Below the pieces are notes generated by a model. The model made no database searches. It was not told the DNA's origin and saw only the letters and a program-made list of their open reading frames with translations. The position numbers were made by a program, and so were the translations under genes. Below are positions 7,633 through 63,887 of a stretch of DNA of 64,000 nucleotides, in pieces (the stretch's first letter is position 1; each line of letters begins with the position of its first letter). This DNA comes from Escherichia phage KEP2, in the sequence record PP047752; one strand, 5' to 3'.

Positions 7633-7636
7633 TCAT

Positions 7637-7711: not shown

Positions 7712-7712
7712 T

Positions 7713-18402: not shown

Positions 18403-18417
18403 TAGAGGTAAATTGGA

Positions 18418-32011: not shown

Positions 32012-32017
32012 AATTTA

Positions 32018-32046
32018 AGGCTCCTTTTTACGGGAGCCTTTTTTGT
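32018..32046. terminator. bidirectional rho-independent terminator between convergent modules
   Basis: AGGCTCC…GGAGCCT hairpin flanked by T-run on plus strand and A-run upstream. Confidence 0.65.
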
Positions 32047-32047
32047 T

Positions 32048-32947: not shown

Positions 32948-32948
32948 A

Positions 32949-33494: not shown

Positions 33495-33751
33495 TTTGTA
33501 AATCCTTTCTTAATGAACCAGTTGATAACATTCTTCACAGCTTTATTGCTATGGTAGATTAAGTGTGGTGCAGGTTGGTATGAACCATAGGCCCAGAATG
33601 ATAGATGCTCACCACAACCAACACATGTAGTACTTTCTTCAGCTATATGACCATTAACAATCACATGAACTTCACCTTGTAAGTCTGTACACCCACAATG
33701 TGGACAACGTATAGGTGTTCCATCAGACTCATAGCAGTGTTCAATTTTCAT
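33491..33751 (-). CDS. zinc-ribbon protein
   Basis: CPHCGC…CVGCG cysteine pairs. Confidence 0.45.
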   Translation of the reverse strand: MKIEHCYESDGTPIRCPHCGCTDLQGEVHVIVNGHIAEESTTCVGCGEHLSFWAYGSYQPAPHLIYHSNKAVKNVINWFIKKGFTK

Positions 33752-34267
33752 TTATTTAACCTCAAAAACTGGTTCAAGAACCAATATAAAGTCTACACAG
33801 TCATCTTCTTCATCCAGAATACCATCAAAGTTCTTAGGAACGAAGTCGAAGAGGCTCATCACAAAGCAGTCAGAAGTAACCCTGATAGTTCCTCCCATAT
33901 TCTCTACAGTCAACACTGTACGGCTTTCTTTTACCTCTCTCAGAAGATTACTCACAAAGTCATCTAAGAAGTACTTCATCAGTGACTTAAAACCTTTAGG
34001 GTAATCTGTACCAGAGTATGTTTCAATCTGAGGTACAAGCTTAACATTTATACTAGTCTTTGTTAAGAATGTGTTAGAGAACATACTATCAGGTAACTTA
34101 CAAACAATCTTTCCAGTACCTTCATGTTCAATCTCAACAAAACCAGCTTCATCGCCACATGTGACTATTTTAAAAGATGCTTCATTCTCATGCTGTGAAG
34201 CCATAAACTTTTTAAGCATTTCCTTAAGGAAATCTGCATGAGCATCTTGTAAGTAGATATCAATCAT
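33752..34267 (-). CDS. hypothetical protein
   Basis: 171-aa ORF. Confidence 0.45.
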   Translation of the reverse strand: MIDIYLQDAHADFLKEMLKKFMASQHENEASFKIVTCGDEAGFVEIEHEGTGKIVCKLPDSMFSNTFLTKTSINVKLVPQIETYSGTDYPKGFKSLMKYFLDDFVSNLLREVKESRTVLTVENMGGTIRVTSDCFVMSLFDFVPKNFDGILDEEDDCVDFILVLEPVFEVK

Positions 34268-34280
34268 AGTTAATCACCTA

Positions 34281-34640
34281 TTATGGGAACAGACACTTGA
34301 TGTCATCGTTTTTAAAAACAAAACTTGTGTAGTTGTGACCGTCAACATCCAGCCAAACAGCCTGAACATCTACACCATCAAGATTTTGGTAAAGCTCTTT
34401 GATAAAGTGGTCTTTCACAATCTGGCTACTGGTTGTTTCCAGCTTAATGTTTGAGATTGCTGAACCTACAGCCATATAACCCATGACACGTTTCTTCTCA
34501 GTATGCTTAATCTTACCATCTTTGTAAGCCATAATGAGATTGGAAAGAATCTTCACACCATAATACTTTTCAAGGTGAGTCGGTACACCATAAAAGCCTA
34601 ATGCGAAGTTTTCAGAGTGGATAATATTTTCACGTTTCAT
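34281..34640 (-). CDS. hypothetical protein
   Basis: 119-aa ORF. Confidence 0.45.
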   Translation of the reverse strand: MKRENIIHSENFALGFYGVPTHLEKYYGVKILSNLIMAYKDGKIKHTEKKRVMGYMAVGSAISNIKLETTSSQIVKDHFIKELYQNLDGVDVQAVWLDVDGHNYTSFVFKNDDIKCLFP

Positions 34641-34641
34641 A

Positions 34642-34971
34642 TTAATCTGCCAACCTTAAATTAAAATTAACACCAAATTTTTCACATACTTCCAACATAT
34701 ACTCAAGGGAGACATTACCAGTGAGGTGGATTATGTTGGATACACGAGCCTGAGAGATACCACAAATTTTAGCAACTTGCTCTTGAGAAAGACCTCTGGA
34801 TTTAATCTCTCTCTTAAAACGATGTGCAACAAAATCTCTCATTTCGTCTACATCCATTGGACAAATATAACTCTCCATTTCAGCCTCTCTGTCAGCCTCC
34901 CAATCATCTTGTGGAGCATAAGGGTCAAAAACCTCATTCATCTTTCTTCTTCCGTTTGCGTGAAGTATCAA
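34642..34971 (-). CDS. helix-turn-helix protein (XRE-like)
   Basis: LSQEQVAKICGISQARVSNI HTH-like segment. Confidence 0.45.
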   Translation of the reverse strand: MILHANGRRKMNEVFDPYAPQDDWEADREAEMESYICPMDVDEMRDFVAHRFKREIKSRGLSQEQVAKICGISQARVSNIIHLTGNVSLEYMLEVCEKFGVNFNLRLAD

Positions 34972-35146
34972 TCAATGAATCTATGTTTGTAGCCCTAACC
35001 TTTTCACGTTCATCGTTAAGATAATCATCAAGAGCCTTTTCAATCTGTGAATCATCTTGACAGATAACTGTAAAGACTGTAAAGCCGTCTGTATCATCAA
35101 TTATCTTACCATAACCGCTTCTGGGATGTAACTTTTTAAGAGCCAT
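34934..35146 (-). CDS. hypothetical protein
   Basis: 70-aa ORF. Confidence 0.35.
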   Translation of the reverse strand: MALKKLHPRSGYGKIIDDTDGFTVFTVICQDDSQIEKALDDYLNDEREKVRATNIDSLIDTSRKRKKKDE

Positions 35147-35147
35147 A

Positions 35148-35531
35148 TCAAATACCTGTGCAGCTTCTGTTTTCTAAGAAATACTCAACACCATACATAG
35201 CTTTTTGCATCAAGTCTTCTTTAAACTGAATACGATGATTGAGCATAGCCTGTACATCAATATCATCAGGGTGCTTCTCTTTAATATTTGCAGATTGTAG
35301 GAAATACTCTGCAAGAACACGATACTGATAGTCAGTTACCTTATCAGTCATCTCTGTTAAAGACTCTTCAGAGATTGGTTTAAGTAGTTCACCATTAGCT
35401 AGAGCAACACCTTTTACAATCTGGCAAGTGTCTTCTGGAACACCTGATAAGTCCACATTGGGAAGTTCTGTTGCATTAACTGGTAAATTCATTGCCATAA
35501 CCATTGCAGCAGCTAATAAAATCTTTTTCAT
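35148..35531 (-). CDS. secreted/periplasmic protein with signal peptide
   Basis: N-terminus MKKILLAAAMVMAMNLPVNA. Confidence 0.5.
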   Translation of the reverse strand: MKKILLAAAMVMAMNLPVNATELPNVDLSGVPEDTCQIVKGVALANGELLKPISEESLTEMTDKVTDYQYRVLAEYFLQSANIKEKHPDDIDVQAMLNHRIQFKEDLMQKAMYGVEYFLENRSCTGI

Positions 35532-35963
35532 AATGACCTCAAAGTTATATTAAATTTTGTATTACATTGAGTATAAAAATAAGCTATAACACCTGACTTG
35601 TCAACAGATTTTATAGCTTATTTGGCAGATTTTTTATAAGGCTACTGCCATCCTTCCATACCAGACTACACCATGCCAGACCAGACTTCACATCACCTTA
35701 CCGTGCAATACATTACTTAAAAACCCTCTTAAAAGACTCTTAAGTGATGCTGGTGAGTACCCGTTGGTCTATACTGCTCAGTATACTCACCAAATTTTCT
35801 ATGTCAACAACTTTTATATAAAAGTACTGATAGCTATATGTGTTACAAAACAGAAGATTGTGAACAAGACACCCATTGCAAAGGATGTGTTCAAAAGCTT
35901 ACTTGTGATGTAAGACAACACAAAGATAACTAATGCAAATAGTATGATTATGCTTAGCATAGT

Positions 35964-37100
35964 TTACTCATAATCCCTAATAACGAGGCCAACAGGGAAC
36001 TGTAAAGAACCCTTACGAGTCATCTTCTGGAACTGAACAGTTAAAGGTTTCCCGATAAACTCTTCAGGATGTTCAGCAAGATACTGTTTCTTCTCGTGTG
36101 TAGTTTTCCATGAAACATCTACAAAGACGTTAGGAAGAGTCTCTACAACAAACTTGCCATGACCACGTTTGTCAGTTTTTACACCAGTCACTTTAAACTC
36201 TTCCGTGTGCATCTTCTTGTGCTTAATCAAGAAGTATGAACGGTGACAACACTCATAGAAGGAGTCTTCAGAGATTGAACGGTACATTGCACCTTCAAAC
36301 TTAGCTTCAACCCACTTATCATGAGCTTCATCAAACTCCTCCCAAGAGTTCACACGGATAGTCTGTACAGGAACCACTCTACAGGTATCACCAAGCTCAA
36401 TAATGGGTGAGTTATCAATAACTTCACGACGCTCAGGCCAAGTTTTTGAATTGTCACAGATATCATACCAGTAGAATTTAAGAAGGTGACGTTCTGGGTT
36501 GTCAGTATTCTTAATCATAGACACAATATCTTCTAAGTCCCAACCGTGAGCATAAATCTCACCATCAAAGTCTTCGACTTGTGGATGCAATTTAAGCAAC
36601 AAAAGCAAATCTGGGATTAGCTCTGCTGGTACGTTGTAAACAGTATTCTCACGAGAATAAGCCGTGAAACTAACTAAATCAGCATCTCTTGAAATTCTAC
36701 AACGGACACCATCAAGTTTCGGTTGAGCATCAGCAGGGAACTTCAGATACTTTGCATGACTAACCTTTGCAGCATCATGAGCAAGCTGCACACCTACCTT
36801 TTCAGTATTCTGTGCAGACTCTTTTGTATAAGCATAACCTTTGCGGTCAACTTGCTTTTTGTACTTAGCAGTAACTTCAAAGAGAGCTTGCTGTTCAGCA
36901 TTACGCTCATTCTTTTTACCGATGTTTTTAGGTTCTGCTGTATACTCTTCAAACATCATCTTGCCATTTTCTTTACCGTAGGTTGTAATGACTTTGTCAC
37001 CTACAGCAACGCATGACCAGACGTTAAAAGAACCATCTTTATTCTGTTTGTATAGTATTGTCATTTTATTCCTCTGAGTGATACCAAGTATTGCAAGCAT
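35964..37100 (-). CDS. ATP-dependent DNA ligase
   Basis: Adenylation motif PKLDGVRC (KxDG); 378 aa. Confidence 0.8.
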   Translation of the reverse strand: MLAILGITQRNKMTILYKQNKDGSFNVWSCVAVGDKVITTYGKENGKMMFEEYTAEPKNIGKKNERNAEQQALFEVTAKYKKQVDRKGYAYTKESAQNTEKVGVQLAHDAAKVSHAKYLKFPADAQPKLDGVRCRISRDADLVSFTAYSRENTVYNVPAELIPDLLLLLKLHPQVEDFDGEIYAHGWDLEDIVSMIKNTDNPERHLLKFYWYDICDNSKTWPERREVIDNSPIIELGDTCRVVPVQTIRVNSWEEFDEAHDKWVEAKFEGAMYRSISEDSFYECCHRSYFLIKHKKMHTEEFKVTGVKTDKRGHGKFVVETLPNVFVDVSWKTTHEKKQYLAEHPEEFIGKPLTVQFQKMTRKGSLQFPVGLVIRDYE

Positions 37101-37257
37101 TACATGCGTAAAGCTCTAAGTCATTTTTATCTGGTTTATGAAAACAGTTTGCTCCGCAGTGGCAACGAAATGGCTTTCCACCAACTGTAAGGATGAAGGA
37201 TTGAACCTTTCCATCAGGAGTTCGTACAGCATTTTTATGTTTATCTTCTTTGTTCAT
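37066..37257 (-). CDS. zinc-ribbon protein, paralog A
   Basis: FRCHCGANCFH…CNACN; paralog of 37582..37785. Confidence 0.45.
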   Translation of the reverse strand: MNKEDKHKNAVRTPDGKVQSFILTVGGKPFRCHCGANCFHKPDKNDLELYACNACNTWYHSEE

Positions 37258-37330
37258 TTTATCTCTTGCCTCACAAGCTATGCAACCTTTTGAGTAGAAG
37301 TAGTGCCAAGCACAACCATCAAAGCTCTCT

Positions 37331-37585
37331 TTAGTGATTAATTGAATTTACTAATTCCATGTGTTTTTCGTAGAAACATAAACATTTTTTATCTTGCTCA
37401 TTTATGTAGCTCTCATAAAATTCTGGTGATTCTGGTCTTTCACCAAATGAAATAACCTTTAGGTAGTACTTCCCATATGTGGAGCTATCTAACCAAGAGT
37501 CAAATAGTAATTTCTTAGTATTAGTCTTTGGAGGGATTACCAAACTTTTCTCATACAATTCCTTCATTTCTTGGGTTATCTTCAT
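37331..37585 (-). CDS. hypothetical protein
   Basis: 84-aa ORF. Confidence 0.4.
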   Translation of the reverse strand: MKITQEMKELYEKSLVIPPKTNTKKLLFDSWLDSSTYGKYYLKVISFGERPESPEFYESYINEQDKKCLCFYEKHMELVNSINH

Positions 37586-37785
37586 TGCATATCCTTAATC
37601 TTACCTAAGAACCTTACCCCACAGTTATTACACTCGTATGTGTCTAACTTTGTGTTATCAGGTTTGTGAAAACAGTTTGACCCACAACGACACCGGAATA
37701 GTTTACCATCAACACGAAGAATGAACGTCTCAAGCTCACCCTCTTCTGTAAGAACTGCGTTTTTCAATTTATCTCCTACAGTCAT
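37582..37785 (-). CDS. zinc-ribbon protein, paralog B
   Basis: FRCRCGSNCFH…CNNCG. Confidence 0.45.
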   Translation of the reverse strand: MTVGDKLKNAVLTEEGELETFILRVDGKLFRCRCGSNCFHKPDNTKLDTYECNNCGVRFLGKIKDMQ

Positions 37786-38087
37786 TTTCTTTTACCACCA
37801 ATCTCTACGTCGATAACTTGAACATCACCAGCAATATCAAACTTATGAATGATGCTTTCCACAGTATAAGTCCAACCCTCGATTCGAACCAACTCACCCT
37901 CTCGTGGGACGATTGGGTTACGTTGAGCTACGGTTGTAGTGGAGTGAACAACATCATAACAGTAGATATAGTTTACTAGGACTTCCATCGTGAAAACCTC
38001 ACTCAATAACCGTAGTATGTGATTGACCATTTTTGCCATAACTATAAGATGTTGTTGTTTGAGAGTTTGGACACCTGACAACAACAA
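37782..38087 (-). CDS. hypothetical protein
   Basis: 101-aa ORF. Confidence 0.4.
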   Translation of the reverse strand: MLLSGVQTLKQQHLIVMAKMVNHILRLLSEVFTMEVLVNYIYCYDVVHSTTTVAQRNPIVPREGELVRIEGWTYTVESIIHKFDIAGDVQVIDVEIGGKRK

Positions 38088-38235
38088 TATCTCTGCTTAT
38101 TGCATCCCCATTTAACTTATAGACTTTGCAATCTTGCATCTCTGGTGGGAGACTATAAGAAGCATTTTTGTCCTCGTAAGAGGGATTACAGCCAGATAGA
38201 AAGATAACACCAAGCACAATTACTGCTTTCCACAT
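37999..38235 (-). CDS. putative lipoprotein
   Basis: Signal peptide with lipobox MWKAVIVLGVIFLSGC; overlaps 37782..38087 in another frame so one of the two may be spurious. Confidence 0.35.
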   Translation of the reverse strand: MWKAVIVLGVIFLSGCNPSYEDKNASYSLPPEMQDCKVYKLNGDAISRDIVVVRCPNSQTTTSYSYGKNGQSHTTVIE

Positions 38236-38422
38236 AATACTCCTCCTATTTACTGTTCACGATGTTCTACTTCTCTGTACGTTCGTCGATAGTATATAAT
38301 AAGCTGTGCTAATTCGTTGCTTTTAACATCGGAGCGTAACAGTTGCCAATCAAAGCCTTTACCTACCCTACCATATAAACTAAACAACTTCACTTTGCGT
38401 TTCATTTTGGTATCCCCAATAC

Positions 38423-38650
38423 TCAGAGGTCAATACTAATACGTTCACCTTTAAGGACTCCTGTACGGTCCCTTGCAATCTTACCGTCAACAATAAGGAT
38501 ATGTGCAGACCTTAAAGATTCACTATTAAAACCTTTTAAGAACTTGCTAGGCATCACTACAATACACATCTCCTGAATCAACTCTGGAGTATAGCAGTTG
38601 TCGTGAAGTTGCTGAATAACGTCTGCAAGTGTCATTTTTGATGTCTCCAA
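38423..38650 (-). CDS. small protein, paralog pair member 1
   Basis: Shares …DGKIARDRTGVLKGERISID… motif with 38838..39047. Confidence 0.45.
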   Translation of the reverse strand: METSKMTLADVIQQLHDNCYTPELIQEMCIVVMPSKFLKGFNSESLRSAHILIVDGKIARDRTGVLKGERISIDL

Positions 38651-38841
38651 TACTCAATGTCAATAAGTTCTTGTGCAATGCTTTTCAGATTACCTTTCAA
38701 GAAAACCTTCTCAGAACCTGAAAGAGATGAATTGTCAATTAACCTGCTCATTCTCTCAAACAACTTCTGCTTACGGTTCTTGATAGTCTCATTTGAAGCA
38801 CCTTTCATCATCGCTGCATGGGTTCTTCCACGGTGACTCAT
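38632..38841 (-). CDS. small basic protein
   Basis: 69-aa ORF between the two paralogs. Confidence 0.4.
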   Translation of the reverse strand: MSHRGRTHAAMMKGASNETIKNRKQKLFERMSRLIDNSSLSGSEKVFLKGNLKSIAQELIDIEYWRHQK

Positions 38842-39047
38842 AGCAAATTCTCGATGTCTACACGTTCACCTTTTAAGTACCCTGTCTTGTCTTTTGCGAT
38901 TTTCCCTCCAGCAATAAAGATATCTGCTATACGCAGAGCTTCAGGGTTTACTCTATAACCACTGCAAATAACAATAAGCATGTCTTCAATCTCTTTTTGA
39001 GAATAACCTGCACATTGCAACTGAACTTCAATCTCTGAAAGCGTCAT
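38838..39047 (-). CDS. small protein, paralog pair member 2
   Basis: …GGKIAKDKTGYLKGERVDIE…. Confidence 0.45.
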   Translation of the reverse strand: MTLSEIEVQLQCAGYSQKEIEDMLIVICSGYRVNPEALRIADIFIAGGKIAKDKTGYLKGERVDIENLL

Positions 39048-39108
39048 GTGACCTCCTATACAAGATACAGTATAAGGTACTCTTCCATGAGCACCTTGTC
39101 AATACTAA

Positions 39109-41808
39109 TTAGTGTACTTCAAGCCAGCTTTTACCAACCTTACCAGTACCTGTTACAAGTGTTTCTTTCTTAAGACCTAAGTTCTTAGAAGCTTGTCCAT
39201 AATACCAGTCAGTAACTGCTTTCACTTCTGCCGTCATACTTTCTGGACATTCCCAGCTTGTTTCATCGTGATATGCGCAGAGCAAACGAGCACCAATAGC
39301 TGGTTTACGACCATTTAACTTCATCAAACCTTCGTCAATCATACGACGACAAGCAAGGTTAATTGCCTCATTTTGAATCTGAGCCTCTGAACCCATCAAA
39401 AGATAGTTCAACAGTTTGTGTGGAGATTTACACCACAACCAAGCTCCAGCAACCTTTACAAATCCCCCTTTAGAGATTGCAGCGGTCTTACCAAAAACCT
39501 CTTCAAGTGCCTTTTTAGTCGCTTTGTAGTCAGCTTCCAAGTCATCTAGCAACTTCTTAATTTTAGGCAAACGAATAAAGTAAGTCTGTTTAGTCAGTGC
39601 ACCTTCCTGAGTAGTTGCAGCTTTAATTGTCTTAGCAAACTTCTCATCACCTGCACCGAACAGCAGTGCATAGATACCATTCTTAGCTTTTTTACGACCC
39701 TTACTAATCTCATGGAGAAGATTCTCATCCTGAGTGGCTCGACAAGTCAAGATATCCTGCTCATCATTCAAGCTAAAGTAAATACTGTTCAGTGTGTGTG
39801 CATCAGTCCCTGAATAGACAACGTACAGGTCATTCTCAGAGTCATAGCGGAGGTACTTATCAATCTCTGGGTTGAGGTACTCATCAAAGTGTTTGCAGTA
39901 ATAGCGTCCATCTTCTTGACGAATAAACTCAATCTCTTCTTTACCTTGCGTTACCGCTTTGGTGAAGTCTTTGTCACCCATAAAGTTACAAAGGAGAACT
40001 AGCTGGGCTGAGTTCATGTCTACAGAGACAACATTAGTACCTTCTTCACAAATCCACACTGCCCTCATTGGTTCCCCATAGACAGCAGCACCAGACGGTA
40101 CGTTTACAATACCATATTGTGTCATACGTCCAGTTGAAGTACCAAATACCATTGCACCAGCACTAAGGCGACCATCTGGACGAATCTGGTTTAGCCAACC
40201 TTTTTCATCATCCTTTGAGTTCTCAATAGTTCTGCGTCTGTGCATCAAAGTATAGTACTTAGCAATCTTCTGTCCAAGCTCACCTTCAATCGTATCATAA
40301 GATGATTCAGTAAGTTTTGGTGAAGTACGGATTAAGCAAGGCTCAAGCAAATCTGTGTACTTCTTCACAGACCAGTTATGCTCGATGTACTGTACACCTT
40401 CATGTTCAACATAACTCAAACCACACCGCTCAACCATTTCCTGCCACTTAGGATGCTTTGTAATCATCTTTTTATTGTCTTTGAAACGACAAACTTTGAC
40501 AGGGCGACCGTCTGAATCTTTCTTGTAGTTCCAGTCATCTGGAATCCAACCAACTGATTTCAAGTAGTCTTTAACAACTGCTACCTGAGTCATACGAGAA
40601 ACTTCAAACTCAATTGGTGTATATGGTGCATCAATCAATCCTGTGTAGCGACTTGACTCAAGCTCAAAGTGGTTAACAACATGACTGTTATAGTACTTCA
40701 CAGTTTTAACTGTTTTTACTGGCTTCCAGTCTTTGCATTTCTTACCAATCTTTGCATTCAACTCATTGCAAATTGCACGAGCATCCTTCATTGCTACAAA
40801 ACCTTCCTTGTACTCTTCACCAGTTACAGAGTTGGTTGGTGTATAGCAATTTCTCTTTTCAATGTTAAAAATCTTTGTAGTTGGCTTACCAAATGGCTTG
40901 ATTTCATATGTCTGCATCTCACCGTTACGTACCTGCTGACGATACTTTGTCTTAGGGTACTTGGTAATTCTCTTCAGTCCATCTGCGTGACCAAATGCTT
41001 CAACATACTCATTCCAAGCTTTTGCAAACTCTTCTCCAGTGACTTTACCTTTGGTCTTGATAGTTGGTGGAAGGTGTGGTTCAACTTCTGAAGCAAGCTC
41101 ATTAGTCAGCTTGTCAAGTTCCTTTACATGGAACTCCATAAGCTCTTTATCAGCTTTCCAACCATTGATAGCCTGTTGACTCATCCAGAAAGATGTTTCT
41201 TTAGCTCGCATGTAGGTTTCATAAGTATCTATGCCACACTTCTTCAGCTTGAGATATTCATTATCCAGTGCGCGTTTAGTTTTGGCGTTAATACGGATAT
41301 CTTCCACAACACGAGTGAAGATTTCTGCATTCCACACACCCCAATGTTCAATCTCTGGTTTACGTACACCAACACGAGCACCCCATGCTGCCAAGCCATG
41401 AGCACCTTTATAACCTTTTGGAGTTGGTCTATCCATCCACTGAACACGAGACTGGATAAGAGAATCCTGAAAGAAATTACTCCACGGCTTACACTTTGGA
41501 TTATCAAAGTTCCACAAATCAGGTGCAATGTGATTGAAAACCCACCAGTCATACCCCAGACCATTATGGATGCAGAGTCGTTTTGCCTTTAACGCAAACT
41601 CAATGCCTTCACGTAAGCCACCCTTAATGTACTTGGTATACTTGTGACCGAGGATAGGTTCATCTGTAAAGACCCATACAGGCGGCTCTTCATCGTCAGA
41701 TTTATAGTCTGCGAAAGCCATTACGTGCACTTTAGTGAACTCAAGGAGTAAACCATCAGTTTCTGTATCACCAACTAAATGTAAGTTTTTAAAATCTACG
41801 TTTTCCAT
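39109..41808 (-). CDS. family-A DNA polymerase with 3'-5' exonuclease domain
   Basis: Exo motif VGDTETDGL; pol motifs KKAKNGIYALLFGAG and CAYHDE; start taken at second ATG (41808) which has GGGAG RBS; track start 41838. Confidence 0.9.
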   Translation of the reverse strand: MENVDFKNLHLVGDTETDGLLLEFTKVHVMAFADYKSDDEEPPVWVFTDEPILGHKYTKYIKGGLREGIEFALKAKRLCIHNGLGYDWWVFNHIAPDLWNFDNPKCKPWSNFFQDSLIQSRVQWMDRPTPKGYKGAHGLAAWGARVGVRKPEIEHWGVWNAEIFTRVVEDIRINAKTKRALDNEYLKLKKCGIDTYETYMRAKETSFWMSQQAINGWKADKELMEFHVKELDKLTNELASEVEPHLPPTIKTKGKVTGEEFAKAWNEYVEAFGHADGLKRITKYPKTKYRQQVRNGEMQTYEIKPFGKPTTKIFNIEKRNCYTPTNSVTGEEYKEGFVAMKDARAICNELNAKIGKKCKDWKPVKTVKTVKYYNSHVVNHFELESSRYTGLIDAPYTPIEFEVSRMTQVAVVKDYLKSVGWIPDDWNYKKDSDGRPVKVCRFKDNKKMITKHPKWQEMVERCGLSYVEHEGVQYIEHNWSVKKYTDLLEPCLIRTSPKLTESSYDTIEGELGQKIAKYYTLMHRRRTIENSKDDEKGWLNQIRPDGRLSAGAMVFGTSTGRMTQYGIVNVPSGAAVYGEPMRAVWICEEGTNVVSVDMNSAQLVLLCNFMGDKDFTKAVTQGKEEIEFIRQEDGRYYCKHFDEYLNPEIDKYLRYDSENDLYVVYSGTDAHTLNSIYFSLNDEQDILTCRATQDENLLHEISKGRKKAKNGIYALLFGAGDEKFAKTIKAATTQEGALTKQTYFIRLPKIKKLLDDLEADYKATKKALEEVFGKTAAISKGGFVKVAGAWLWCKSPHKLLNYLLMGSEAQIQNEAINLACRRMIDEGLMKLNGRKPAIGARLLCAYHDETSWECPESMTAEVKAVTDWYYGQASKNLGLKKETLVTGTGKVGKSWLEVH

Positions 41809-41867
41809 TTTTACTCCCTCTAAAATCATTAACCTCATACATTACTGCAAAAAATTATAAAAAGCAA

Positions 41868-41892
41868 GTTGACAATGTGCTTGACAAGGTGT
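41868..41892 (+). promoter_or_regulatory. tandem TTGACA boxes (GTTGACAATGTGCTTGACAAGGTGT) in divergent intergenic region
   Basis: 23 of 25 nt identical to 2418-2442. Confidence 0.4.
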
Positions 41893-42065
41893 TAATCTTT
41901 GCGAAGTGGGTTTTTACTTAAAAGGTTACTTAACAGTTTAACTATACAGATACTTTAAAACTCTTAAAAGATTATTTAATAGCTTTTAAAAAGCTTTAAA
42001 GTATAACGTATAGAATACGTTAAGATAAAAGATTAAAACTTAATAGTTACTTAAAAGAGGCTTAC

Positions 42066-55006: not shown

Positions 55007-57151
55007 ATGAACAAAGTACAAATTATTAAAAAGAATGGCTCACTTGAAGAACCGGATATCAAAAAAGTTTTAGCAGCAGTAACTAAGTCAGCTAACAGAG
55101 TTGGGTATAAAGAACTTCCACCAGATGTTACCCAAGCTCTTGAGTCAGCATTTATGAGGATTCTAGTAAAGTCCACTAAGCAGAATAACTTACTTATCTC
55201 GGTAAATGATATCCACAGTATCGTTGAAGGTGCTTTGGCAGAAGTCAATCACGAGATTTATGAGTCTTACTCAACATACAGAAATTACCGTAAAGAGGTT
55301 GCTCAAAATTGGGATGAGCTTTACCAAAAGACCAGAGACACACTCTTCTTAGGTGACCGTGAAAATGCTAACTTTGACAGTAGTTTAATTTCTACAAAAG
55401 GTTCAATTATTCGTGGTTATCTGACTAAAGAAATCTTTAAACAGTACCATTTAACACCAGAGGAACTTGAATCCATTGAAAAAGGGTTTATCTATATCCA
55501 CGATTTAAGAGACCTGATTTTTTGTGGTATTAACTGTTGCTTGTTTGACATTGGTAAAGTACTGGAAGGTGGCTTTGAAATGTCTGGCATCGAATACTGT
55601 GAACCAAAGTCTGTACTGTCAGCCTTACAAGTTATCGGTGATGTAGTTCTTTCAGCAACTGCACAGCAATTTGGTGGATTTACTTTAGCAGAGATTGACA
55701 AGGTGCTTGTACCGTATGCTAAGAAGTCTCTACGCTATCATGCTGAGAAAGCAGCATCTTACGGTATTCCTAAAGAACATTACCATAACTATGTCATGGA
55801 GCAGCTACAGATTGAATTAACTCAAGGCTTCCAGTCACTAGAGATGAAACTAAATACTGTACCTTGCAGCCGTGGTGATTTTGCATTCACAACTTTAACA
55901 TTTGGTTTACTTGACTCAGATATGTCTAATGAAGACAACCGGCTACAATACATGATTGCAAACACCATTCTTGATGTTCGCATGAATGGACAAGGTAAGA
56001 GTAAGAAGCCTGTTGTATTCCCTAAACTGGTTTATATTCATGACCAGAAGAGACACGATGAGAATATCTGTCAAGGCCAACTGTACAGTAAAGCTATTGA
56101 GTGTTGCTCTAAAGCAATGTATCCAGATTTCTTAAGCGTATCTGGTCATGGTGCTGTAGCAGAGGCTTTTGAGCGTTCTGGCAAGGTAATTTCACCGATG
56201 GGTTGCAGAGCTTTCTTATCCCCATATCTTAACGAGAATGGAGAAGAGTTCTACGTTGGACGTGCTAACATTGGTGCTGTATCTTTGAACTTGCCAATGA
56301 TTTACCAGTATTCTAAAGAGAATGGTTTAGATTTCTGGAAAGAGCTTGATAAGTACCTAGAGATGATTCGCAGCTTCCACAAGAAACGCTACGAAATGAT
56401 TGCTAATATGCCAGCAAGTTCTAACCCTCTTGCATTCACACAAGGTGGTCTGTACAAAGGGACTAAGAAACCTACTGACAAGGTTGGTTGGGATATCGTG
56501 AAGTCCTTCACAGCTTCTTTTGGGGTTACTGCGCTTGATGAGCTGTCTGTTCTTGCTGAAGGTAAACGACTCCATGAAGTTGGAAGCTACAGTTTTGCAT
56601 ACGATGTTCTGGCATACATTAACATGAAAACTGAAGAGTTTAAGAATGAAGATGGCTTCTTATATGCTGTCTATGGTACTCCAGCAGAATCACTTTGCGG
56701 AACTCAGCTAAAACAGTTCAGAGATATGTTTGGCGTTATCAAAGGTGTTTCTGATAAGGAATACTTTACAAACAGTTTCCATATGAATGTTGCAGCAGAC
56801 ATCTCACCATTTGAGAAGCAGGACTTAGAAGAGCCATTCTTCCATATCTGTAGAGGTGGTAGAATCCAGTATGTCAGAGTAGCTAACCCAGAAAACTTAC
56901 CAGCACTTAAAAGTTGTATTACCAGAGGGATGTTGAAGGGTTTTTATCAGGGACTTAACTTTGACTTAGCAATCTGTGAGCATTGCGGTAACAGACCAAA
57001 GGCTGATGTTGAAGAATGTGAGGTTTGCCATTCACATGATATCTCTGTGATTAACAGGGTGTGTGGTTATCTTGGATGGACTAAGATTAAAGGTGAATCC
57101 CGAATGAACGATGCAAAAATCGCTGAGATTCGTGACAGGATTTCTATGTAA
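55007..57151 (+). CDS. nrdD: anaerobic ribonucleoside-triphosphate reductase
   Basis: C-terminal glycyl-radical motif RVCGYLG and CxxC zinc site (CEHCG…CEVC). Confidence 0.85.
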   Translation: MNKVQIIKKNGSLEEPDIKKVLAAVTKSANRVGYKELPPDVTQALESAFMRILVKSTKQNNLLISVNDIHSIVEGALAEVNHEIYESYSTYRNYRKEVAQNWDELYQKTRDTLFLGDRENANFDSSLISTKGSIIRGYLTKEIFKQYHLTPEELESIEKGFIYIHDLRDLIFCGINCCLFDIGKVLEGGFEMSGIEYCEPKSVLSALQVIGDVVLSATAQQFGGFTLAEIDKVLVPYAKKSLRYHAEKAASYGIPKEHYHNYVMEQLQIELTQGFQSLEMKLNTVPCSRGDFAFTTLTFGLLDSDMSNEDNRLQYMIANTILDVRMNGQGKSKKPVVFPKLVYIHDQKRHDENICQGQLYSKAIECCSKAMYPDFLSVSGHGAVAEAFERSGKVISPMGCRAFLSPYLNENGEEFYVGRANIGAVSLNLPMIYQYSKENGLDFWKELDKYLEMIRSFHKKRYEMIANMPASSNPLAFTQGGLYKGTKKPTDKVGWDIVKSFTASFGVTALDELSVLAEGKRLHEVGSYSFAYDVLAYINMKTEEFKNEDGFLYAVYGTPAESLCGTQLKQFRDMFGVIKGVSDKEYFTNSFHMNVAADISPFEKQDLEEPFFHICRGGRIQYVRVANPENLPALKSCITRGMLKGFYQGLNFDLAICEHCGNRPKADVEECEVCHSHDISVINRVCGYLGWTKIKGESRMNDAKIAEIRDRISM

Positions 57152-57549: not shown

Positions 57550-57752
57550 CAATGACAACACTCTTAAGGGTATTAGCACCCATACTACACATAGCAATCT
57601 TCTTCTTTGGAGTTAGTGTTATGGTATGGGGTTTTTCAGACCCACAATGGAGTTTCGCATATCATGGTCAGATGGATTTATGGTCATGCTTCAAACCATT
57701 TTTAGGGTTAGCTATAGCATTTAGTGCATTACCAACTAAGGTGAAATTATGA
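57537..57752 (+). CDS. small membrane protein
   Basis: 71 aa, two hydrophobic stretches. Confidence 0.35.
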   Translation: MVELTMTTLLRVLAPILHIAIFFFGVSVMVWGFSDPQWSFAYHGQMDLWSCFKPFLGLAIAFSALPTKVKL

Positions 57753-58144
57753 TTAAGTTGAGCAAAAAACAGTTAGAGTGGATTAAAGATTACGCCTCAG
57801 AGTGTGGCTCTTGCGAAAAGAATCACGTAAGATACTCAACATTCCATACAACCTTCACATTGTATGTTGGCGACAACGTTCTAAGTGATTCCGTAGAAGA
57901 TGGTGTAGCGTTGCCTAATGAATTGCTTGACAAATTAGCTGTAGTCACTGGAACTTGGTCTGAAGAAGACGGTCATGAATTATCTGACGATGTTGTCTTC
58001 TACAGTCTTGAAAATATTATGAATCCAGAGTACATTATGCTAATGACTTGTGCACAAGACTGTGTACCATTACAAAACTTCATTAAAGAGCACTGTGAAG
58101 AGTTTATTACTAAACAGGTTCCTTGTGAGGTGGTGTTTGAATGA
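57749..58144 (+). CDS. hypothetical protein
   Basis: 131-aa ORF. Confidence 0.45.
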   Translation: MIKLSKKQLEWIKDYASECGSCEKNHVRYSTFHTTFTLYVGDNVLSDSVEDGVALPNELLDKLAVVTGTWSEEDGHELSDDVVFYSLENIMNPEYIMLMTCAQDCVPLQNFIKEHCEEFITKQVPCEVVFE

Positions 58145-58440
58145 GTAAAACAATTCGAAGAAAAGGTTTAAAGAACGTTCATGGACTCTATGAGTGGAGA
58201 AATGAGGTACGTAACAGAGAAAATGCTTCAGATGTCTACTTCCATTCTGATATGATGTCCAGAAAAGGTGGCTATTATGACTTTACAAGTCAGCCTTGTA
58301 GAGAGATTAAGAAGGCTACTAAACGTCTTACAAGAACACAAATAAGGCAGCTTTCTAAGACATCCTTCTTAGATGAAGACTTTGACATTGATAGCAAGTC
58401 TCCAAAGAAAGCCGCTAATAGCACTTATATGTATTGGTGA
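58141..58440 (+). CDS. hypothetical basic protein
   Basis: 99-aa ORF. Confidence 0.4.
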   Translation: MSKTIRRKGLKNVHGLYEWRNEVRNRENASDVYFHSDMMSRKGGYYDFTSQPCREIKKATKRLTRTQIRQLSKTSFLDEDFDIDSKSPKKAANSTYMYW

Positions 58441-58449
58441 GGTAACTAG

Positions 58450-58935
58450 ATGAATTACATGGAGATTCGACCATTTGACACAGCTAATGGTGAAGGGGTT
58501 CGTGTAAGCCTCTTCGTAGCTGGCTGTAAACATCACTGTGAAGGCTGCTTTAACAGGGAGTCTTGGAAGTTTAATGCTGGTAAAGAGTTTACTTATGCAA
58601 ACCTCTACGGCATCATTAAGTTAATGGATGATAATGCTATCAGTGGGCTGTCAATACTTGGTGGGGAGCCTCTGGATGACAGAAACATTCAAGAGGTCAC
58701 TAACATATGCAAGCGTATTAAAACTGTTTATCCAGAAAAGTCTATATGGCTTTGGACAGGTTTTCAACTGCACGAAAAAATCCACCTAGATGTGATGAAA
58801 TATGTTGACGTGGTGATTGATGGTAAGTATGATTCATCTAAACCAACAGTTAAACCATATCGTGGTTCTGATAACCAAAACCTCTGGAGAAAAGAGTATG
58901 GGTGGCAAGGCGATTGTCAATGGCGAGCAGAATGA
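58450..58935 (+). CDS. nrdG: anaerobic RNR activating protein (radical SAM)
   Basis: CxxxCxxC cluster motif GCKHHCEGC; 161 aa; near nrdD. Confidence 0.75.
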   Translation: MNYMEIRPFDTANGEGVRVSLFVAGCKHHCEGCFNRESWKFNAGKEFTYANLYGIIKLMDDNAISGLSILGGEPLDDRNIQEVTNICKRIKTVYPEKSIWLWTGFQLHEKIHLDVMKYVDVVIDGKYDSSKPTVKPYRGSDNQNLWRKEYGWQGDCQWRAE

Positions 58936-59173
58936 TTATTCTGGTAAGTGGACTTATGACATCAACAAGTTAGATGCCTGGATTATTTATACAAGAGAAA
59001 AATTTGGTGCACATTCATTATGTGCTCTTGCAACGATTGTAAAGAATGTCACCTTTGTCATACATGAGTCAGATAAATTTGGAGACTTCTACAGGATTCA
59101 AAACATCAGAGAAGGTGTAACTCCAATAGGAATCACTGAAGAAGAACTTCATAAGTTTTGTATTAAACTTTAA
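58897..59173 (+). CDS. hypothetical protein
   Basis: Internal ATG of track ORF 58817..59173, avoiding overlap with nrdG. Confidence 0.3.
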
Positions 59174-59188
59174 TGAGAGAGACTAAAA

Positions 59189-59455
59189 ATGGGAATTTTA
59201 GGTAATATGAAGGCTGGCTTCTTGAAGGCACTGGCAAAAGCAGCAGCAATCATTTCTATGACTGGAAAGCAGGTTGGTGTAGATGCTTCAGCAGTTGCAC
59301 AAGTTCTTGCAAGCCAAATTGAACAGCAGCCTTACATCTACGTAGGACGTGGAAAAGGTGGTAAAAAACAAGCACATCGACCAACTGGTGCAGCAGCAAT
59401 TAAACGTGCAGCTAAGAAATCTCGTAACCGTAAACGTAACAAGAAGGCTAAATAA
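59189..59455 (+). CDS. small protein with highly basic C-terminus
   Basis: C-terminal KRAAKKSRNRKRNKKAK. Confidence 0.4.
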   Translation: MGILGNMKAGFLKALAKAAAIISMTGKQVGVDASAVAQVLASQIEQQPYIYVGRGKGGKKQAHRPTGAAAIKRAAKKSRNRKRNKKAK

Positions 59456-59457
59456 TC

Positions 59458-59778
59458 ATGAGCAAAGTTTATAACACTCGTAAATTACAGATTTTCGTAC
59501 TGTGCCAGTTTATGGCTAAAGAGTATAACTACTACTATTGTGGTACAGGGTTCATTAGTGATAATGACGGTTCATATCTACCATTCAAAGAGGCTGTAAA
59601 ACTCTTCAATGAAGAGAAAAGCTCTAAGAAAGATATTGAAAAGGTTAAGCTAACCTACAGCAAGAAAGATAAGAAGATTATCTGCCTAGATAACTTTGTA
59701 AAAGTTACTGGAGAAGCAAAAGAGTTTATGGATGAGAGTGAGATTTCATTCACAAGCATCTTGAAAGTAGCTCAGTAA
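59458..59778 (+). CDS. hypothetical protein
   Basis: 106-aa ORF followed by terminator-like hairpin. Confidence 0.45.
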   Translation: MSKVYNTRKLQIFVLCQFMAKEYNYYYCGTGFISDNDGSYLPFKEAVKLFNEEKSSKKDIEKVKLTYSKKDKKIICLDNFVKVTGEAKEFMDESEISFTSILKVAQ

Positions 59779-59829
59779 ACAGATACTATAAGGGGACTGT
59801 AAAGGTTCCCTTTTTATTTTGGAGATAAA

Positions 59830-60345
59830 ATGTATCTGTCAAACCTGAAACGTTCGGCTGCAATGTCAGTTCTAAGACTCAGCTTTGAGGAACGTCAAGA
59901 GTTCATTGACTCCCACCAATACGACCCTTCTAACTCAAATCACATGATTCTCTGGAATCGTGAGAGTACTCGTGAAAGAGCACTATTCCGCTATTATCCA
60001 CACTACACTATAGATAACCTGTATGAATGTTTTGTTGTGAAGAACACCATTACAGTTCTCAATAAACTTTGCAGATACACAGGTAGTCAATCCTTCACAT
60101 TAGGTCACCACAAGCCTGTTACAAAAGGTGGTGAACATCACTGCGCAAACTGGTTTATCCAAACTAAAGCTGATAACCAGAAGCAAGGAGATAGCCTTCT
60201 AAGCACTCCTAAGATGACCTATGAAGAGCAAGAGAGATATATCAAAAATAATATGCCAGATGTGCTTGACAACAACTATACAGATTTGGCAATATCTCTC
60301 CTGTTGAAGTTTGAGACAGTTTATAGGGCAACTTACAATGGCTAA
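59830..60345 (+). CDS. HNH-motif nuclease-like protein
   Basis: LGHHKPVTKGGEHHCANWFIQTKADNQK (HH…GG…N…N..K pattern). Confidence 0.4.
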   Translation: MYLSNLKRSAAMSVLRLSFEERQEFIDSHQYDPSNSNHMILWNRESTRERALFRYYPHYTIDNLYECFVVKNTITVLNKLCRYTGSQSFTLGHHKPVTKGGEHHCANWFIQTKADNQKQGDSLLSTPKMTYEEQERYIKNNMPDVLDNNYTDLAISLLLKFETVYRATYNG

Positions 60346-60616
60346 AGAGAAGTGGGAGATTCTACCATTAGTGAGTGAAGGTGGTAACGGCTGTGAGATG
60401 TACATGATACGTGGTCATGTCCCAGAACCAATTGCACTTGAGATGGTAAACAATTTTACAGATGGCTCTTACAAAGATTTAGGAGAGCCAACTATAAAGC
60501 ATCAATGGGTCAAACCTGTACCAGACAGCACAGGTAACTGTAGTGTACTTTATCACGTTGTAGACCCTGCAAAATGCAAATCTGCAATGGCAGTAACAAA
60601 CATAACCTTTGATTGA
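60338..60616 (+). CDS. hypothetical protein
   Basis: Internal ATG (MAKEKWEIL…) of track ORF 60311..60616. Confidence 0.35.
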   Translation: MAKEKWEILPLVSEGGNGCEMYMIRGHVPEPIALEMVNNFTDGSYKDLGEPTIKHQWVKPVPDSTGNCSVLYHVVDPAKCKSAMAVTNITFD

Positions 60617-60629
60617 GAGAGAGAAAACT

Positions 60630-61511
60630 ATGAAAACTGTTATTGAAGTCGTTGTCACCGCACAAGAGAAATTCTTCCACACAGAAAAATTTAATATCAT
60701 CCAATTCCCATCTGGAGAAATTGGTGGAAACTTCTCTGAAGATTTTGTTAAGTTTACTGAGCGTAATGCTGGTAAGATTGACAATGTTATACTTACTGTG
60801 CAGGGATATGATAAAGATACACTGTTTGCATTAGCTTTGGCTAAGGATGCCATTGACAGCCTTGTTCCATATAAATCAGCGATGAAAACCGTTGTTTTCG
60901 GGTTCTTACCGAATGCTCGATATGACCGCCATATGTTCAAAGGCGATTCAGCAGCACTAAAAGCTTTTGCCAACCTCGTTAATGCAATGGGCTTTGATGC
61001 AGTATGTGCTCTTGACCCTCACAGTAATGTTGCAGAAAACTTATTTAAGTGCTTCCAAAGCATGAAGCAAAAAGATGTGGCAGTACACTTTGCAAGTGAC
61101 CCACGCATTGATTTCTTGGTAGCCCCAGATGCAGGTGCAGCTAAGAAGACTGAAGAGACTGCTAAAGAGGTGGATAAACCATACATCACAATGTCTAAAG
61201 TACGTAACCTTAAGACTGGTGAAATTACTGGTATGCGAATCCTTGATGATGTTGATTTGACCGATAAAACTGTCATGATTCTCGATGATATCTGTGATGG
61301 TGGTCGAACCTTCATAGAAGCAGCTAAACATCTTCGTGAAGCAGGTGCAAAACGTGTGGAACTCTATGTAACTCATGGCATTTTCTCTAAAGGTGTTGAA
61401 AACTTACTTGACAATGGTATTGACCATATCTACACTACAAACTCTTTAGGGGAAGCTAAAGACCGTGGCTTAACACATTATGCCCAAGTTACTGTAATTA
61501 CCATTGATTGA
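60630..61511 (+). CDS. ribose-phosphate pyrophosphokinase-like protein (Prs family; possibly ADPR-pyrophosphate synthetase)
   Basis: PRTase-type PRPP loop VMILDDICDGGRT; ~295 aa; directly upstream of NAMPT-like gene. Confidence 0.55.
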   Translation: MKTVIEVVVTAQEKFFHTEKFNIIQFPSGEIGGNFSEDFVKFTERNAGKIDNVILTVQGYDKDTLFALALAKDAIDSLVPYKSAMKTVVFGFLPNARYDRHMFKGDSAALKAFANLVNAMGFDAVCALDPHSNVAENLFKCFQSMKQKDVAVHFASDPRIDFLVAPDAGAAKKTEETAKEVDKPYITMSKVRNLKTGEITGMRILDDVDLTDKTVMILDDICDGGRTFIEAAKHLREAGAKRVELYVTHGIFSKGVENLLDNGIDHIYTTNSLGEAKDRGLTHYAQVTVITID

Positions 61512-61519
61512 AACTTTAT

Positions 61520-61542
61520 AGGGGGCTTCAAAGCCCCATTTT
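61520..61542 (+). terminator. hairpin with T-run between Prs-like and NAMPT-like genes
   Basis: GGGGGCT-TCAA-AGCCCC followed by ATTTT. Confidence 0.45.
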
Positions 61543-61558
61543 GAGAGAGATTAAAAAG

Positions 61559-63340
61559 ATGACTAAATCACTTTATGCAGTACCAGCAGGTTTAAACGCG
61601 GATGCTTACAAATCTGGCCATATTTATCAGTATCCTAGTGCAACAGAGTACCTAATGTTCAACCTGACACCACGTAGTGATAAATGGTTTAACAGCCCTT
61701 TAGCAATTGACGGTGTAGTTGCTTTTGGTATTCAACGTTTTGTTAAAGATTACCTGATAGACCACTGGAACGCCACCTTCTTCGAACGTGACAAAAAAGA
61801 AGCAATTGATGAAATCTTAGAAGTCATGAACGGCGTTCTGGGTAAAGATGCTATTGGTCGAGAACATTGGGAAGCACTCCACGACTTAGGTTATCTACCA
61901 GTTGAAGTCTACGCTGTAGAAGAAGGTACAGTTGTCCCTATGCGTGTGCCAATGATTGTCTTCCAGAACACTGTTTCAGGTTTCCATTGGGTAGCGGGGT
62001 ATCTGGAAGATGCTTTCTCTGCTGAGATTTGGAAGGCTTGTACCATTGCAACTATTGCATTGCACTACAAACGTATCTGTAAGAAGTGGGCTGACCTTAC
62101 TTGTGACAACGACTTGCATTTACCTTATCAGTGCCATGACTTTGCTATGCGTGGTATGTCTGGCTTTACTGATGACGCATTTAACGCTGTAGGTCACTTA
62201 ACCAGCTTTAAAGGAACTGACAGCTTCCCTGCTGTGTATACAGCTAAACGCATCTATGGACAGTCCTACCCAATCTCTGATATTGGTAGTTCTGTGCCAG
62301 CCACTGAACACTCTGTAATGTGTGCAAACATTGCTTGGGAAGGTGGTAATGAGTTAATTGAAGATGAAAGACGTTTTAAAGGTGAGTTACAAACCTTCCG
62401 TCGTTTCTTAACAGAAACTTACCCAACTGGTATTGCAAGTGTTGTTTCAGACACTTATAACTTCTGGAGAACTGTATCAGTCATATTACCAGAACTCCGT
62501 AAAGAGATTATGGAACGTAATGGCAAACTAGTAATTCGTCCTGACTCTGGAGACCCTGTACATATTGTCACAGGCTATAAAGCAATCCACTTAGAGTGTG
62601 CTAAAAAGGCTTATTACGAACACCTAAGCAAGCTGGAAGCCAGCGACACAATGTTGAATGCTGTTCTGAACATGAAGCTTGAAAACATCAATTATGGTAT
62701 TGCTGGATGGCTATTGTCAGAAGGCTACGAAATAGTTGTTGACAGAGAAGACTTTGAAGTTGCTGATACAGTGCTGTTGAAAAATGCTTATATGGTTGGT
62801 TCTGCAAACGTTGTAACACGTCCTGTAGCGGAGATTGATGGAGCTATCAAGACACTGTATAACATCTTTGGAGGAACTATCAACGCTAAAGGTTTTAAAG
62901 TACTGGATGAGCATATCGGACTTATTTATGGTGACTCTATCACGTTGGAACGTGCAAACGAAATACTGAAGCGTTTGTATGAAATGGGTTTTGCAAGCTC
63001 TAACGTAGTGTTTGGTGTAGGTTCTTATACTTACCAGTACATGACTCGTGACACCTTTGCATTTGCTGTCAAAGCAACTCTTGCAAGCATTGGTGGTAAA
63101 GAGATTATGCTTGCAAAAGACCCTAAAACAGATAGCGGTGTTAAGAAGTCTGCTTTTGGTGGTGTAGCGCCCATGTGGGATGGTGATAAGCTGAAAGCTG
63201 TAGATGGCTATGGATTCCAGAGCTTTGCAGATGTGCTTGAACATCCAGCTTGTGCTTTACGTTTAGTCTTTAGTGACTCTGAGCAGTTCGGTTACACAAC
63301 TCTTGGCGATATTCGAAATAATATTGACAAGCAGCTTTAA
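61559..63340 (+). CDS. nicotinamide phosphoribosyltransferase family protein (NAMPT/NadV-like; possibly Namat)
   Basis: N-terminal DAYKSGHIYQYP resembles NAMPT DSYKVTHYKQYP; start set at ATG 61559 (track start 61508 is TTG inside hairpin). Confidence 0.7.
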   Translation: MTKSLYAVPAGLNADAYKSGHIYQYPSATEYLMFNLTPRSDKWFNSPLAIDGVVAFGIQRFVKDYLIDHWNATFFERDKKEAIDEILEVMNGVLGKDAIGREHWEALHDLGYLPVEVYAVEEGTVVPMRVPMIVFQNTVSGFHWVAGYLEDAFSAEIWKACTIATIALHYKRICKKWADLTCDNDLHLPYQCHDFAMRGMSGFTDDAFNAVGHLTSFKGTDSFPAVYTAKRIYGQSYPISDIGSSVPATEHSVMCANIAWEGGNELIEDERRFKGELQTFRRFLTETYPTGIASVVSDTYNFWRTVSVILPELRKEIMERNGKLVIRPDSGDPVHIVTGYKAIHLECAKKAYYEHLSKLEASDTMLNAVLNMKLENINYGIAGWLLSEGYEIVVDREDFEVADTVLLKNAYMVGSANVVTRPVAEIDGAIKTLYNIFGGTINAKGFKVLDEHIGLIYGDSITLERANEILKRLYEMGFASSNVVFGVGSYTYQYMTRDTFAFAVKATLASIGGKEIMLAKDPKTDSGVKKSAFGGVAPMWDGDKLKAVDGYGFQSFADVLEHPACALRLVFSDSEQFGYTTLGDIRNNIDKQL

Positions 63341-63353
63341 AAGTATATGATAA

Positions 63354-63377
63354 GAGGCTCCTACGGGAGCCTTTTTA
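63354..63377 (+). terminator. rho-independent terminator
   Basis: AGGCTCC-TACG-GGAGCCT followed by TTTTT. Confidence 0.6.
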
Positions 63378-63393
63378 ATTTCTGGAGAAGATT

Positions 63394-63729
63394 ATGAAAA
63401 TCAAAGAAATGAACATCAACATTGTCTTAGAAGAACGCTGGGAGAACATCAAGAAGCCTGAAAATGGTCATAAGTTCCTCAACAAAATCTTAGTAGCAGC
63501 TAAAGAAGAGCTGACTGGCAAGGTTGCAGCAGCAATCACAATAAAGGTGTGTGTAAAGGGTCTTCCAGACAATCACCAATTTGCACTTGACGAGTTTAAA
63601 GAAAGCTTCTACAATCCAAACAAACAGATGCTTGAAAGTAACTTTGCAGTGTCTACAAGTATCGTCCATGACAGAAGCTTTATCCTTTACAAGAATATGA
63701 GAGGTGAGTCATGCAAGCATATTGGATAG
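63394..63729 (+). CDS. hypothetical protein
   Basis: 111-aa ORF. Confidence 0.45.
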   Translation: MKIKEMNINIVLEERWENIKKPENGHKFLNKILVAAKEELTGKVAAAITIKVCVKGLPDNHQFALDEFKESFYNPNKQMLESNFAVSTSIVHDRSFILYKNMRGESCKHIG

Positions 63730-63887
63730 AAATTTTACTGTCACTTGGTAGTGTAGCAGTGCTTGTTTACCTTCTTTGTAAGTACTTTGCAGAGAACAAA
63801 AAATGTGAATACTGCAACGGAGAGGGGTACATAAGGGCAGGTTGTTGCCCTATGTGTGGTGGTTCTGGTAAAATGTTTAATAAGTGA
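63711..63887 (+). CDS. small membrane zinc-ribbon protein
   Basis: 58-aa ORF below track cutoff, found by hand; RBS GAGGTGAG; hydrophobic N-terminus and CEYCNG…CPMCGG. Confidence 0.3.
   Translation: MQAYWIEILLSLGSVAVLVYLLCKYFAENKKCEYCNGEGYIRAGCCPMCGGSGKMFNK

Follow-up and report, generated by a model that had tools for sequence, protein, structure and literature searches.

NAD+ reconstitution pathway 1 (NARP1; NAD+, nicotinamide adenine dinucleotide) was defined through a deletion that removed genes 79-80 from Bas63 (JohannRWettstein), a BASEL phage of the genus Felixounavirus with genome record MZ501086 (bioRxiv 10.1101/2024.02.11.579819). The present text concerns the corresponding pair of genes, adps and namat, in Escherichia phage KEP2 (sequence record PP047752), of which we analysed a stretch of 64,000 nucleotides (nt), hereafter the window, and for which an earlier note had proposed NARP1. 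In the defining study plating of the Bas63 deletion mutant on SIR2-HerA cells dropped ~20-fold, NAD+ depletion was milder with the wild-type phage than with the deletion, the effect persisted in a pncC nadR double mutant, and ADP-ribose (ADPR)-pyrophosphate (ADPR-PP, m/z 720.010) was seen only in defence-bearing cells infected by wild-type Bas63 (bioRxiv 10.1101/2024.02.11.579819). An independent gene-essentiality screen, the PhageMaP preprint, reported a 1e4 to 1e6 loss of plating on Sir2-HerA cells when either g79 or g80 is deleted, a loss reversed by complementation; smaller effects were described on retron Ec86, which both genes counter 10- to 1000-fold, and on fitness on hhe hosts. The chemistry was worked out in vitro with the enzymes of the Bacillus phage SPbetaL1, where ADPR and ATP gave ADPR-PP, and ADPR-PP and nicotinamide gave NAD+. 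With purified SPbetaL1 Adps, ADPR plus ATP was the one combination that led to product; a second incubation (ribose-5-phosphate in the legend, phosphoribosyl pyrophosphate, PRPP, in the text) yielded none that could be measured, while SPbetaL1 Namat offered ADPR-PP and PRPP together made NAD+ only (bioRxiv 10.1101/2024.02.11.579819). Two extended forms have been described on the same Adps and Namat core: NARP1-AP adds the Macro-domain ADPR-1P phosphatase Adpp, which overcomes aRES defence, and the RyDEP-extended form adds a RyR-domain glycosidase converting cyclic ADPR signals to ADPR. NARP1 is already covered by AntiDefenseFinder profiles.

The span 60630-63340 of the window runs exactly from the first ATG through the second stop codon of two intact, co-oriented genes on the plus strand, adps lying upstream of namat with a spacer of 47 nt:

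60630..61511, plus strand: adps, predicted ADPR-pyrophosphate synthetase of the Prs family, 293 residues (open reading frame (ORF), Pfam, PHROG and identity to Bas63_0079)
61559..63340, plus strand: namat, predicted nicotinamide ADPR-transferase of the NAMPT family, 593 residues (ORF, Pfam, PHROG and identity to Bas63_0080)

We found both proteins to be of the same length as their Bas63 counterparts (293 and 593 residues), in the same gene order and in a phage of the same genus. Adps is identical to Bas63_0079 at 281 of 293 positions (96%) and Namat to Bas63_0080 at 579 of 593 (98%), with 12 and 14 substitutions, respectively, no gaps in either alignment and identical clamp residues in Namat (see below). 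The DNA of the two phages is collinear, with about 94.6% nucleotide identity over window positions 57581-63396, and the flanking Bas63 proteins gp77, gp78, gp82 and gp83 are 91-98% identical to their window counterparts. Two differences were noted in the surroundings: in Bas63 namat is directly followed by an additional small gene, bas63_0081 (Bas63 stretch 18355-18757), which has no counterpart at window positions 63341-63396, and a homing-endonuclease insertion splits the Bas63 nrdD gene into a two-piece join (Bas63 stretch 10727-11469), in contrast to the window, which carries none at ~56204. Near-identity and synteny with Bas63_0079 and Bas63_0080 thus make the window operon the same as the founding NARP1 example. 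No Macro-domain (Adpp) or RyR-domain protein was detected in Pfam and PHROG scans of the ten flanking ORFs, and in its gene content the operon is the core two-gene form. In comparison to SPbetaL1, which likewise has two genes in the same order, the catalytic Lys, the Namat core, the selectivity-clamp helix motif and the NAD+ contacts are common to both phages, whereas overall identity falls to 31% for Adps and 47% for Namat, the clamp loop differs, and SPbetaL1 Namat is without two insertions of ~88 and ~15 residues found in window Namat.

We therefore assign a probability of roughly 93% to the reading that the window carries the NARP1 operon of a Felixounavirus in its core two-gene form, with a counter-defence function, on the grounds of near-identity to the characterised Bas63 genes, of the specificity residues described below and of enzymology extrapolated from the 31% and 47% identical homologues. 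By its sequence the operon is a near-identical copy of a published, experimentally characterised system and is already known. For the window operon itself our observations extend to its orthology, gene order and fold and to the conservation of catalytic and specificity residues; what window-type Adps and Namat do in vitro we infer from the SPbetaL1 enzymes and a few others. According to the published scheme, host NADase effectors of the SIR2, TIR, SEFIR or DSR type would cleave NAD+ to ADPR and nicotinamide. Adps would then transfer a pyrophosphate from ATP to the free ribose of ADPR, giving ADPR-PP, and Namat would swap the pyrophosphate for nicotinamide, so that NAD+ would form directly, by a route bypassing the host enzymes that convert nicotinamide mononucleotide (NMN) to NAD+.

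That a Prs-family gene lies directly upstream of a NAMPT-family gene, as the earlier note had it, was borne out by the ORFs and by Pfam, PHROG and NCBIfam matches far beyond chance. These same family names suggest canonical salvage, in which a true PRPP synthetase and a true NadV/NAMPT would make NMN, host NadR or PncC would carry it on to NAD+, and the gene pair would act as a general metabolic booster. The Pfam, PHROG and NCBIfam names are those of Prs and NAMPT/NAPRT, and folds, the ATP-site and ribose-phosphate-loop motifs and the chemistry (pyrophosphoryl transfer, phosphoribosyl-type transfer) are common to the window proteins and to E. coli Prs (b1207) and the NadV and NAMPT enzymes 9KE8, 7YQO, human NAMPT and RB16 NadV. 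The residues that we used to compare the window proteins with these enzymes and with the SPbetaL1 pair are the following:

61197..61199, plus strand: Lys190 codon of adps, for the catalytic lysine of the flexible loop (alignment)
61272..61310, plus strand: ribose-phosphate binding loop VMILDDICDGGRT of Adps, at residue 215, inside the PF00156 match
61676..61687, plus strand: selectivity-clamp loop (SCL) of Namat, S40-D41-K42-W43, identical to Bas63 (K42 aligned with SPbetaL1 R40)
62309..62311, plus strand: codon for His251, the catalytic histidine of Namat in PATEHS, invariant in 36 homologues
63020..63052, plus strand: selectivity-clamp helix (SCH) motif GSYTYQYMTRD of Namat, residues 488-498 (alignment to the published motif)

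Adps matches PF00156 and PF14572 in Pfam and PHROG 619 with E=1e-98. Regarding the catalytic residues, K190 aligns with K162 of SPbetaL1 Adps, whose K162A mutant is inactive (bioRxiv 10.1101/2024.02.11.579819), and with K194 of E. coli Prs; the loop VMILDDICDGGRT, one of two motifs quoted in the earlier note, is present as described and aligns with CVLVDDMIDTGGT of E. coli Prs, and the motifs NARYDR, DPHS and DDICDGGRT are found as well. Adps thus has the Prs-family fold features together with the catalytic Lys and the ATP and ribose-phosphate motifs. It passes the broad NCBIfam subfamily model TIGR01251 (ribP_PPkin) with 133.5 bits (cut-off 113), as canonical salvage would lead one to expect, yet it falls widely below the cut-off of every NCBIfam Prs equivalog (48-110 bits against cut-offs of 296-536), the best scores being 110 bits against 296 and 77 against 438. 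Identity is 31% to SPbetaL1 Adps and 26% to E. coli Prs. A PDB search with Adps returned no Adps structure, the best matches being ordinary Prs enzymes with E=1e-17 or weaker. Because it shares 96% of its residues with Bas63 Adps and 26% with E. coli Prs, and because it misses the Prs equivalog cut-offs, we assign Adps by sequence comparison to the clade of phage Adps proteins, separate from the cellular Prs enzymes; Bas63 Adps was itself among the queries when that clade was analysed (bioRxiv 10.1101/2024.02.11.579819).

Namat matches PF04095 and PF18127 in Pfam and PHROG 448 with E=3e-201, and the second quoted motif, DAYKSGHIYQYP, starts at its residue 15. In a PDB sequence search the SPbetaL1 Namat entries 9W5W/9W5X came first (E=1e-127), ahead of H. 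ducreyi NadV (8e-105) and human NAMPT (1e-40). The AlphaFold2 model of Namat has a mean pLDDT (predicted local distance difference test) of 93 and its best fold match is 9W5X, with a template modelling (TM) score of 0.95 normalised to the target, so that the Namat entries outrank all NAMPT and NadV entries of the PDB both by sequence and by fold. The Nampt-like catalytic core is kept (D15, Y17, F195, R198, D221, A248, H251, R327 and D329), with its nicotinamide sandwich, the conserved catalytic histidine described for Namat (PMC12774641) and R327 and D329, the equivalents of SPbetaL1 Arg306 and Asp308. Among the SPbetaL1 NAD+ contacts, D13, Y15, F189, R192, D215, A242, R306 and D308 as well as G360, D361, G390, S391, Y396, T398, R399 and D400 are identical in window Namat, and the remaining contact positions show conservative replacements.

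The structures of SPbetaL1 Namat (9W5W, 9W5X) revealed a two-element adenine 'selectivity clamp' that distinguishes Namat from Nampt (PMC12774641). The SCH motif of the window protein corresponds to GSFTYQYNTRD in SPbetaL1 Namat, while the same position reads GGGLLQEVTRD in RB16 NadV, GAQTYQRNTRD in H. ducreyi NadV (9KE8) and GGALLQKVDRD in Xanthomonas Nampt (7YQO); the clamp aromatics are absent from all three. The loop element gives an extra adenine-stacking residue: an Arg in third place or, as in Bas63, whichever residue comes next to a preceding Lys/Tyr (PMC12774641). SPbetaL1 Namat stacks via Arg40, in contrast to window Namat with its K42-W43, where W43 is predicted to stack on the adenine, as in the published AlphaFold3 model (PMC12774641). 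The Klebsiella, Cronobacter, Kosakonia and Phytobacter chromosomes carry 496-residue homologues, ~47% identical and with the motif GSFTYQYNTRD; these suggest bacterial NARP1-like genes in Enterobacteriaceae and fit published reports of bacterial NARP1.

Taken against canonical salvage, the adenine clamp aromatics of window Namat, missing in true NadV/Nampt, stand next to the failed Prs equivalogs, to the counter-defence of Bas63, which with its 96-98% identical proteins works independently of pncC and nadR and is accompanied by ADPR-PP in infected cells, and to the substrate preferences of the purified SPbetaL1 enzymes given above. We consider canonical salvage very improbable. The earlier note had held that sequence alone cannot separate NARP1 from Prs and NadV, which was too cautious, since the clamp motif, the Prs equivalog failure and the Bas63 near-identity do separate them; its proposal of NARP1 (Adps and Namat) is supported by the identities to Bas63_0079 and Bas63_0080, by the gene order and by the clamp motif.

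Several points nevertheless weigh against the assignment to NARP1. Namat passes the NCBIfam model NF006629 (nicotinate/nicotinamide phosphoribosyltransferase) with 467 bits (cut-off 405), and Namat retains PRPP-dependent synthesis in vitro, since the SPbetaL1 enzyme makes NMN from PRPP if ADPR-PP is absent (PMC12774641); both would also be expected under canonical salvage. The purified-enzyme assays cover SPbetaL1 and a few other homologues, and the Bas63 protein, for its part, 'did not purify well', which is why the in vitro chemistry was done with the SPbetaL1 enzymes (bioRxiv 10.1101/2024.02.11.579819). The clade placement of Adps was made by pairwise identities. Finally, the solved Namat lacks the ~88-residue insertion of the window protein, which is taken up below.

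A NARP2-type route is a further alternative: here a NAMPT homologue together with a phage NMN adenylyltransferase (Nmnat) would turn PRPP and nicotinamide into NAD+, with PRPP supply as the only task of the Prs homologue. About 20% of phage Namat/Nampt homologues form a separate clade that works in this way; these NARP2 homologues, however, are found in phages without Adps (bioRxiv 10.1101/2024.02.11.579819), whereas Adps is present in the window. NadV of the T4-like phage RB16, which is without the aromatic clamp residues, is only 31% identical to window Namat. No nucleotidyltransferase-family match was obtained in the ten neighbouring ORFs scanned (57749-63884), the rest of the window not having been scanned for Nmnat. 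We give the NARP2-type route the least credence of all the explanations considered.

Regarding the biological role of the NARP1 operon, the same enzymes may serve more widely, by replenishing adenine or NAD+ against retron Ec86 or hhe, or by sustaining an NAD+-dependent phage ligase or ribonucleotide reductase chemistry. The Bas63 g79/g80 effects on Ec86 and hhe hosts in PhageMaP point in this direction, as does the position of the operon next to nrdA/B, nrdD and nrdG in a nucleotide-metabolism block. The mechanisms for Ec86 and hhe are, however, speculative in that preprint, and such a role would extend the NARP1 reading rather than replace it; we hold it to be a tentative possibility.

In Namat the comparison with SPbetaL1 and bacterial homologues delimits one further feature:

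62576..62839, plus strand: insertion of ~88 residues (~340-427) in Namat (comparison with SPbetaL1 Namat and bacterial homologues)

The insertion is missing from SPbetaL1 Namat and from the bacterial homologues, is confidently folded in the AlphaFold2 model and falls where Namat homologues are hypervariable. No sequence or fold relative of it was detected. The structure paper on SPbetaL1 Namat aligns Bas63 Namat without using the word 'insertion' (PMC12774641). It is conceivable, but in our view unlikely, that the insertion is an Ounavirinae-type subdomain adding a function so far undescribed for NARP1; it could, for example, bind Adps so that the labile ADPR-PP is channelled, restrict activity allosterically to conditions of raised ADPR, or shield the enzyme from a host inhibitor. 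It is little described and is the sole modest loose end of an otherwise known system.

The organisation of the transcription unit was examined in the sequence between and around the two genes. The ORF listing opens both frames at an upstream TTG (60609..61511 and 61508..63340), which would imply overlapping, translationally coupled genes; these TTG starts at 60609 and 61508 were rejected, and in their place the ATG at 60630 was taken for adps and that at 61559 for namat, because each is preceded by a Shine-Dalgarno-like GAGAGAG run and because they match the annotations of Bas63 and of phage vB_EcoM_AYO145A (AYO145A). Two hairpins were found:

61522..61537, plus strand: GC-rich hairpin GGGGCU-UCAA-AGCCCC followed by AUUUUG in the adps-namat spacer (sequence, folding)
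63352..63375, plus strand: terminator-like hairpin directly 3' of the namat stop, with a 10-bp stem and then a T run (consensus scan)

The spacer hairpin has a fold energy of -14.2 kcal/mol (z = -2.5) and carries a rho-independent terminator annotation in AYO145A; it was not called by the consensus terminator scan. It is a putative attenuator or RNA-stability element. Several relatives carry an HNH homing-endonuclease gene in the adps-namat spacer. The hairpin behind namat likely marks the end of the transcription unit, and the consensus scan gave a matching terminator-like site at 59790-59812, upstream of the gp77-gp78-adps-namat block.

Within this terminator-bounded block lies, together with adps and namat, a 171-residue ORF at 59830-60345 that is 97% identical to Bas63 gp77. 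According to the PhageMaP preprint Bas63 gp77 counters retron Ec67, and it is described there as GIY-YIG. A Pfam scan of the window ortholog yielded no nuclease domain, while a weak PHROG HNH match was obtained (E=1e-4) and an HNH-like GHHKPVTKGGEHHCANW stretch is present.

The operon is set among nucleotide-metabolism genes typical of the genus (nrdA/B, nrdD and nrdG), two of which were located as follows, with small genes of no assigned function standing between nrdG and adps:

55007-57151: nrdD (ORF listing, AYO145A comparison)
58450-58935: nrdG (scans of neighbouring ORFs)

A megablast search with positions 60600-63400 returned 257 phage records, nearly all from the genus Felixounavirus (Ounavirinae), with Escherichia, Salmonella, Shigella and Citrobacter as hosts. 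The operon was matched at ≥80% coverage in 216 of these records. The top match to the same query was AYO145A with 98.7% nucleotide identity; it is the closest deposited genome, with 292 of 293 identical residues in Adps (AYO145A_128) and 588 of 593 in Namat. Judged by these matches, the window is a Felixounavirus genome. A near-complete natural deletion of the NARP1 operon was noted in Salmonella phage FG1m (PP068123, 1529-1776), where ORF remnants of only 102 and 168 nt are left between the gp78 and gp82 orthologs; the operon is therefore dispensable and sometimes lost. Elsewhere in the window 16 tRNA genes are clustered at 4603-7871, typical for Felixounavirus, and the corresponding region of Bas63 also has annotated tRNA genes. 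The GC skew is negative over about 10 kb (~32000-42000) and positive again thereafter, consistent with a minus-strand gene block.

The relevance of the assignment is mainly one of annotation. Almost every deposited Felixounavirus genome labels the two genes 'ribose-phosphate pyrophosphokinase' and 'nicotinamide phosphoribosyltransferase', names that predict the wrong chemistry. Their identity as Adps and Namat would instead predict that the phage resists NAD+ depletion of the SIR2-HerA, DSR1/2, type I Thoeris and SEFIR type. By the published logic no resistance would be expected to aRES-type cleavage of NAD+ to ADPR-1P, because there is no Adpp phosphatase gene beside the operon. Recognition of Adps and Namat may thus be useful when Felixounavirus phages are picked for therapy or diagnostics.

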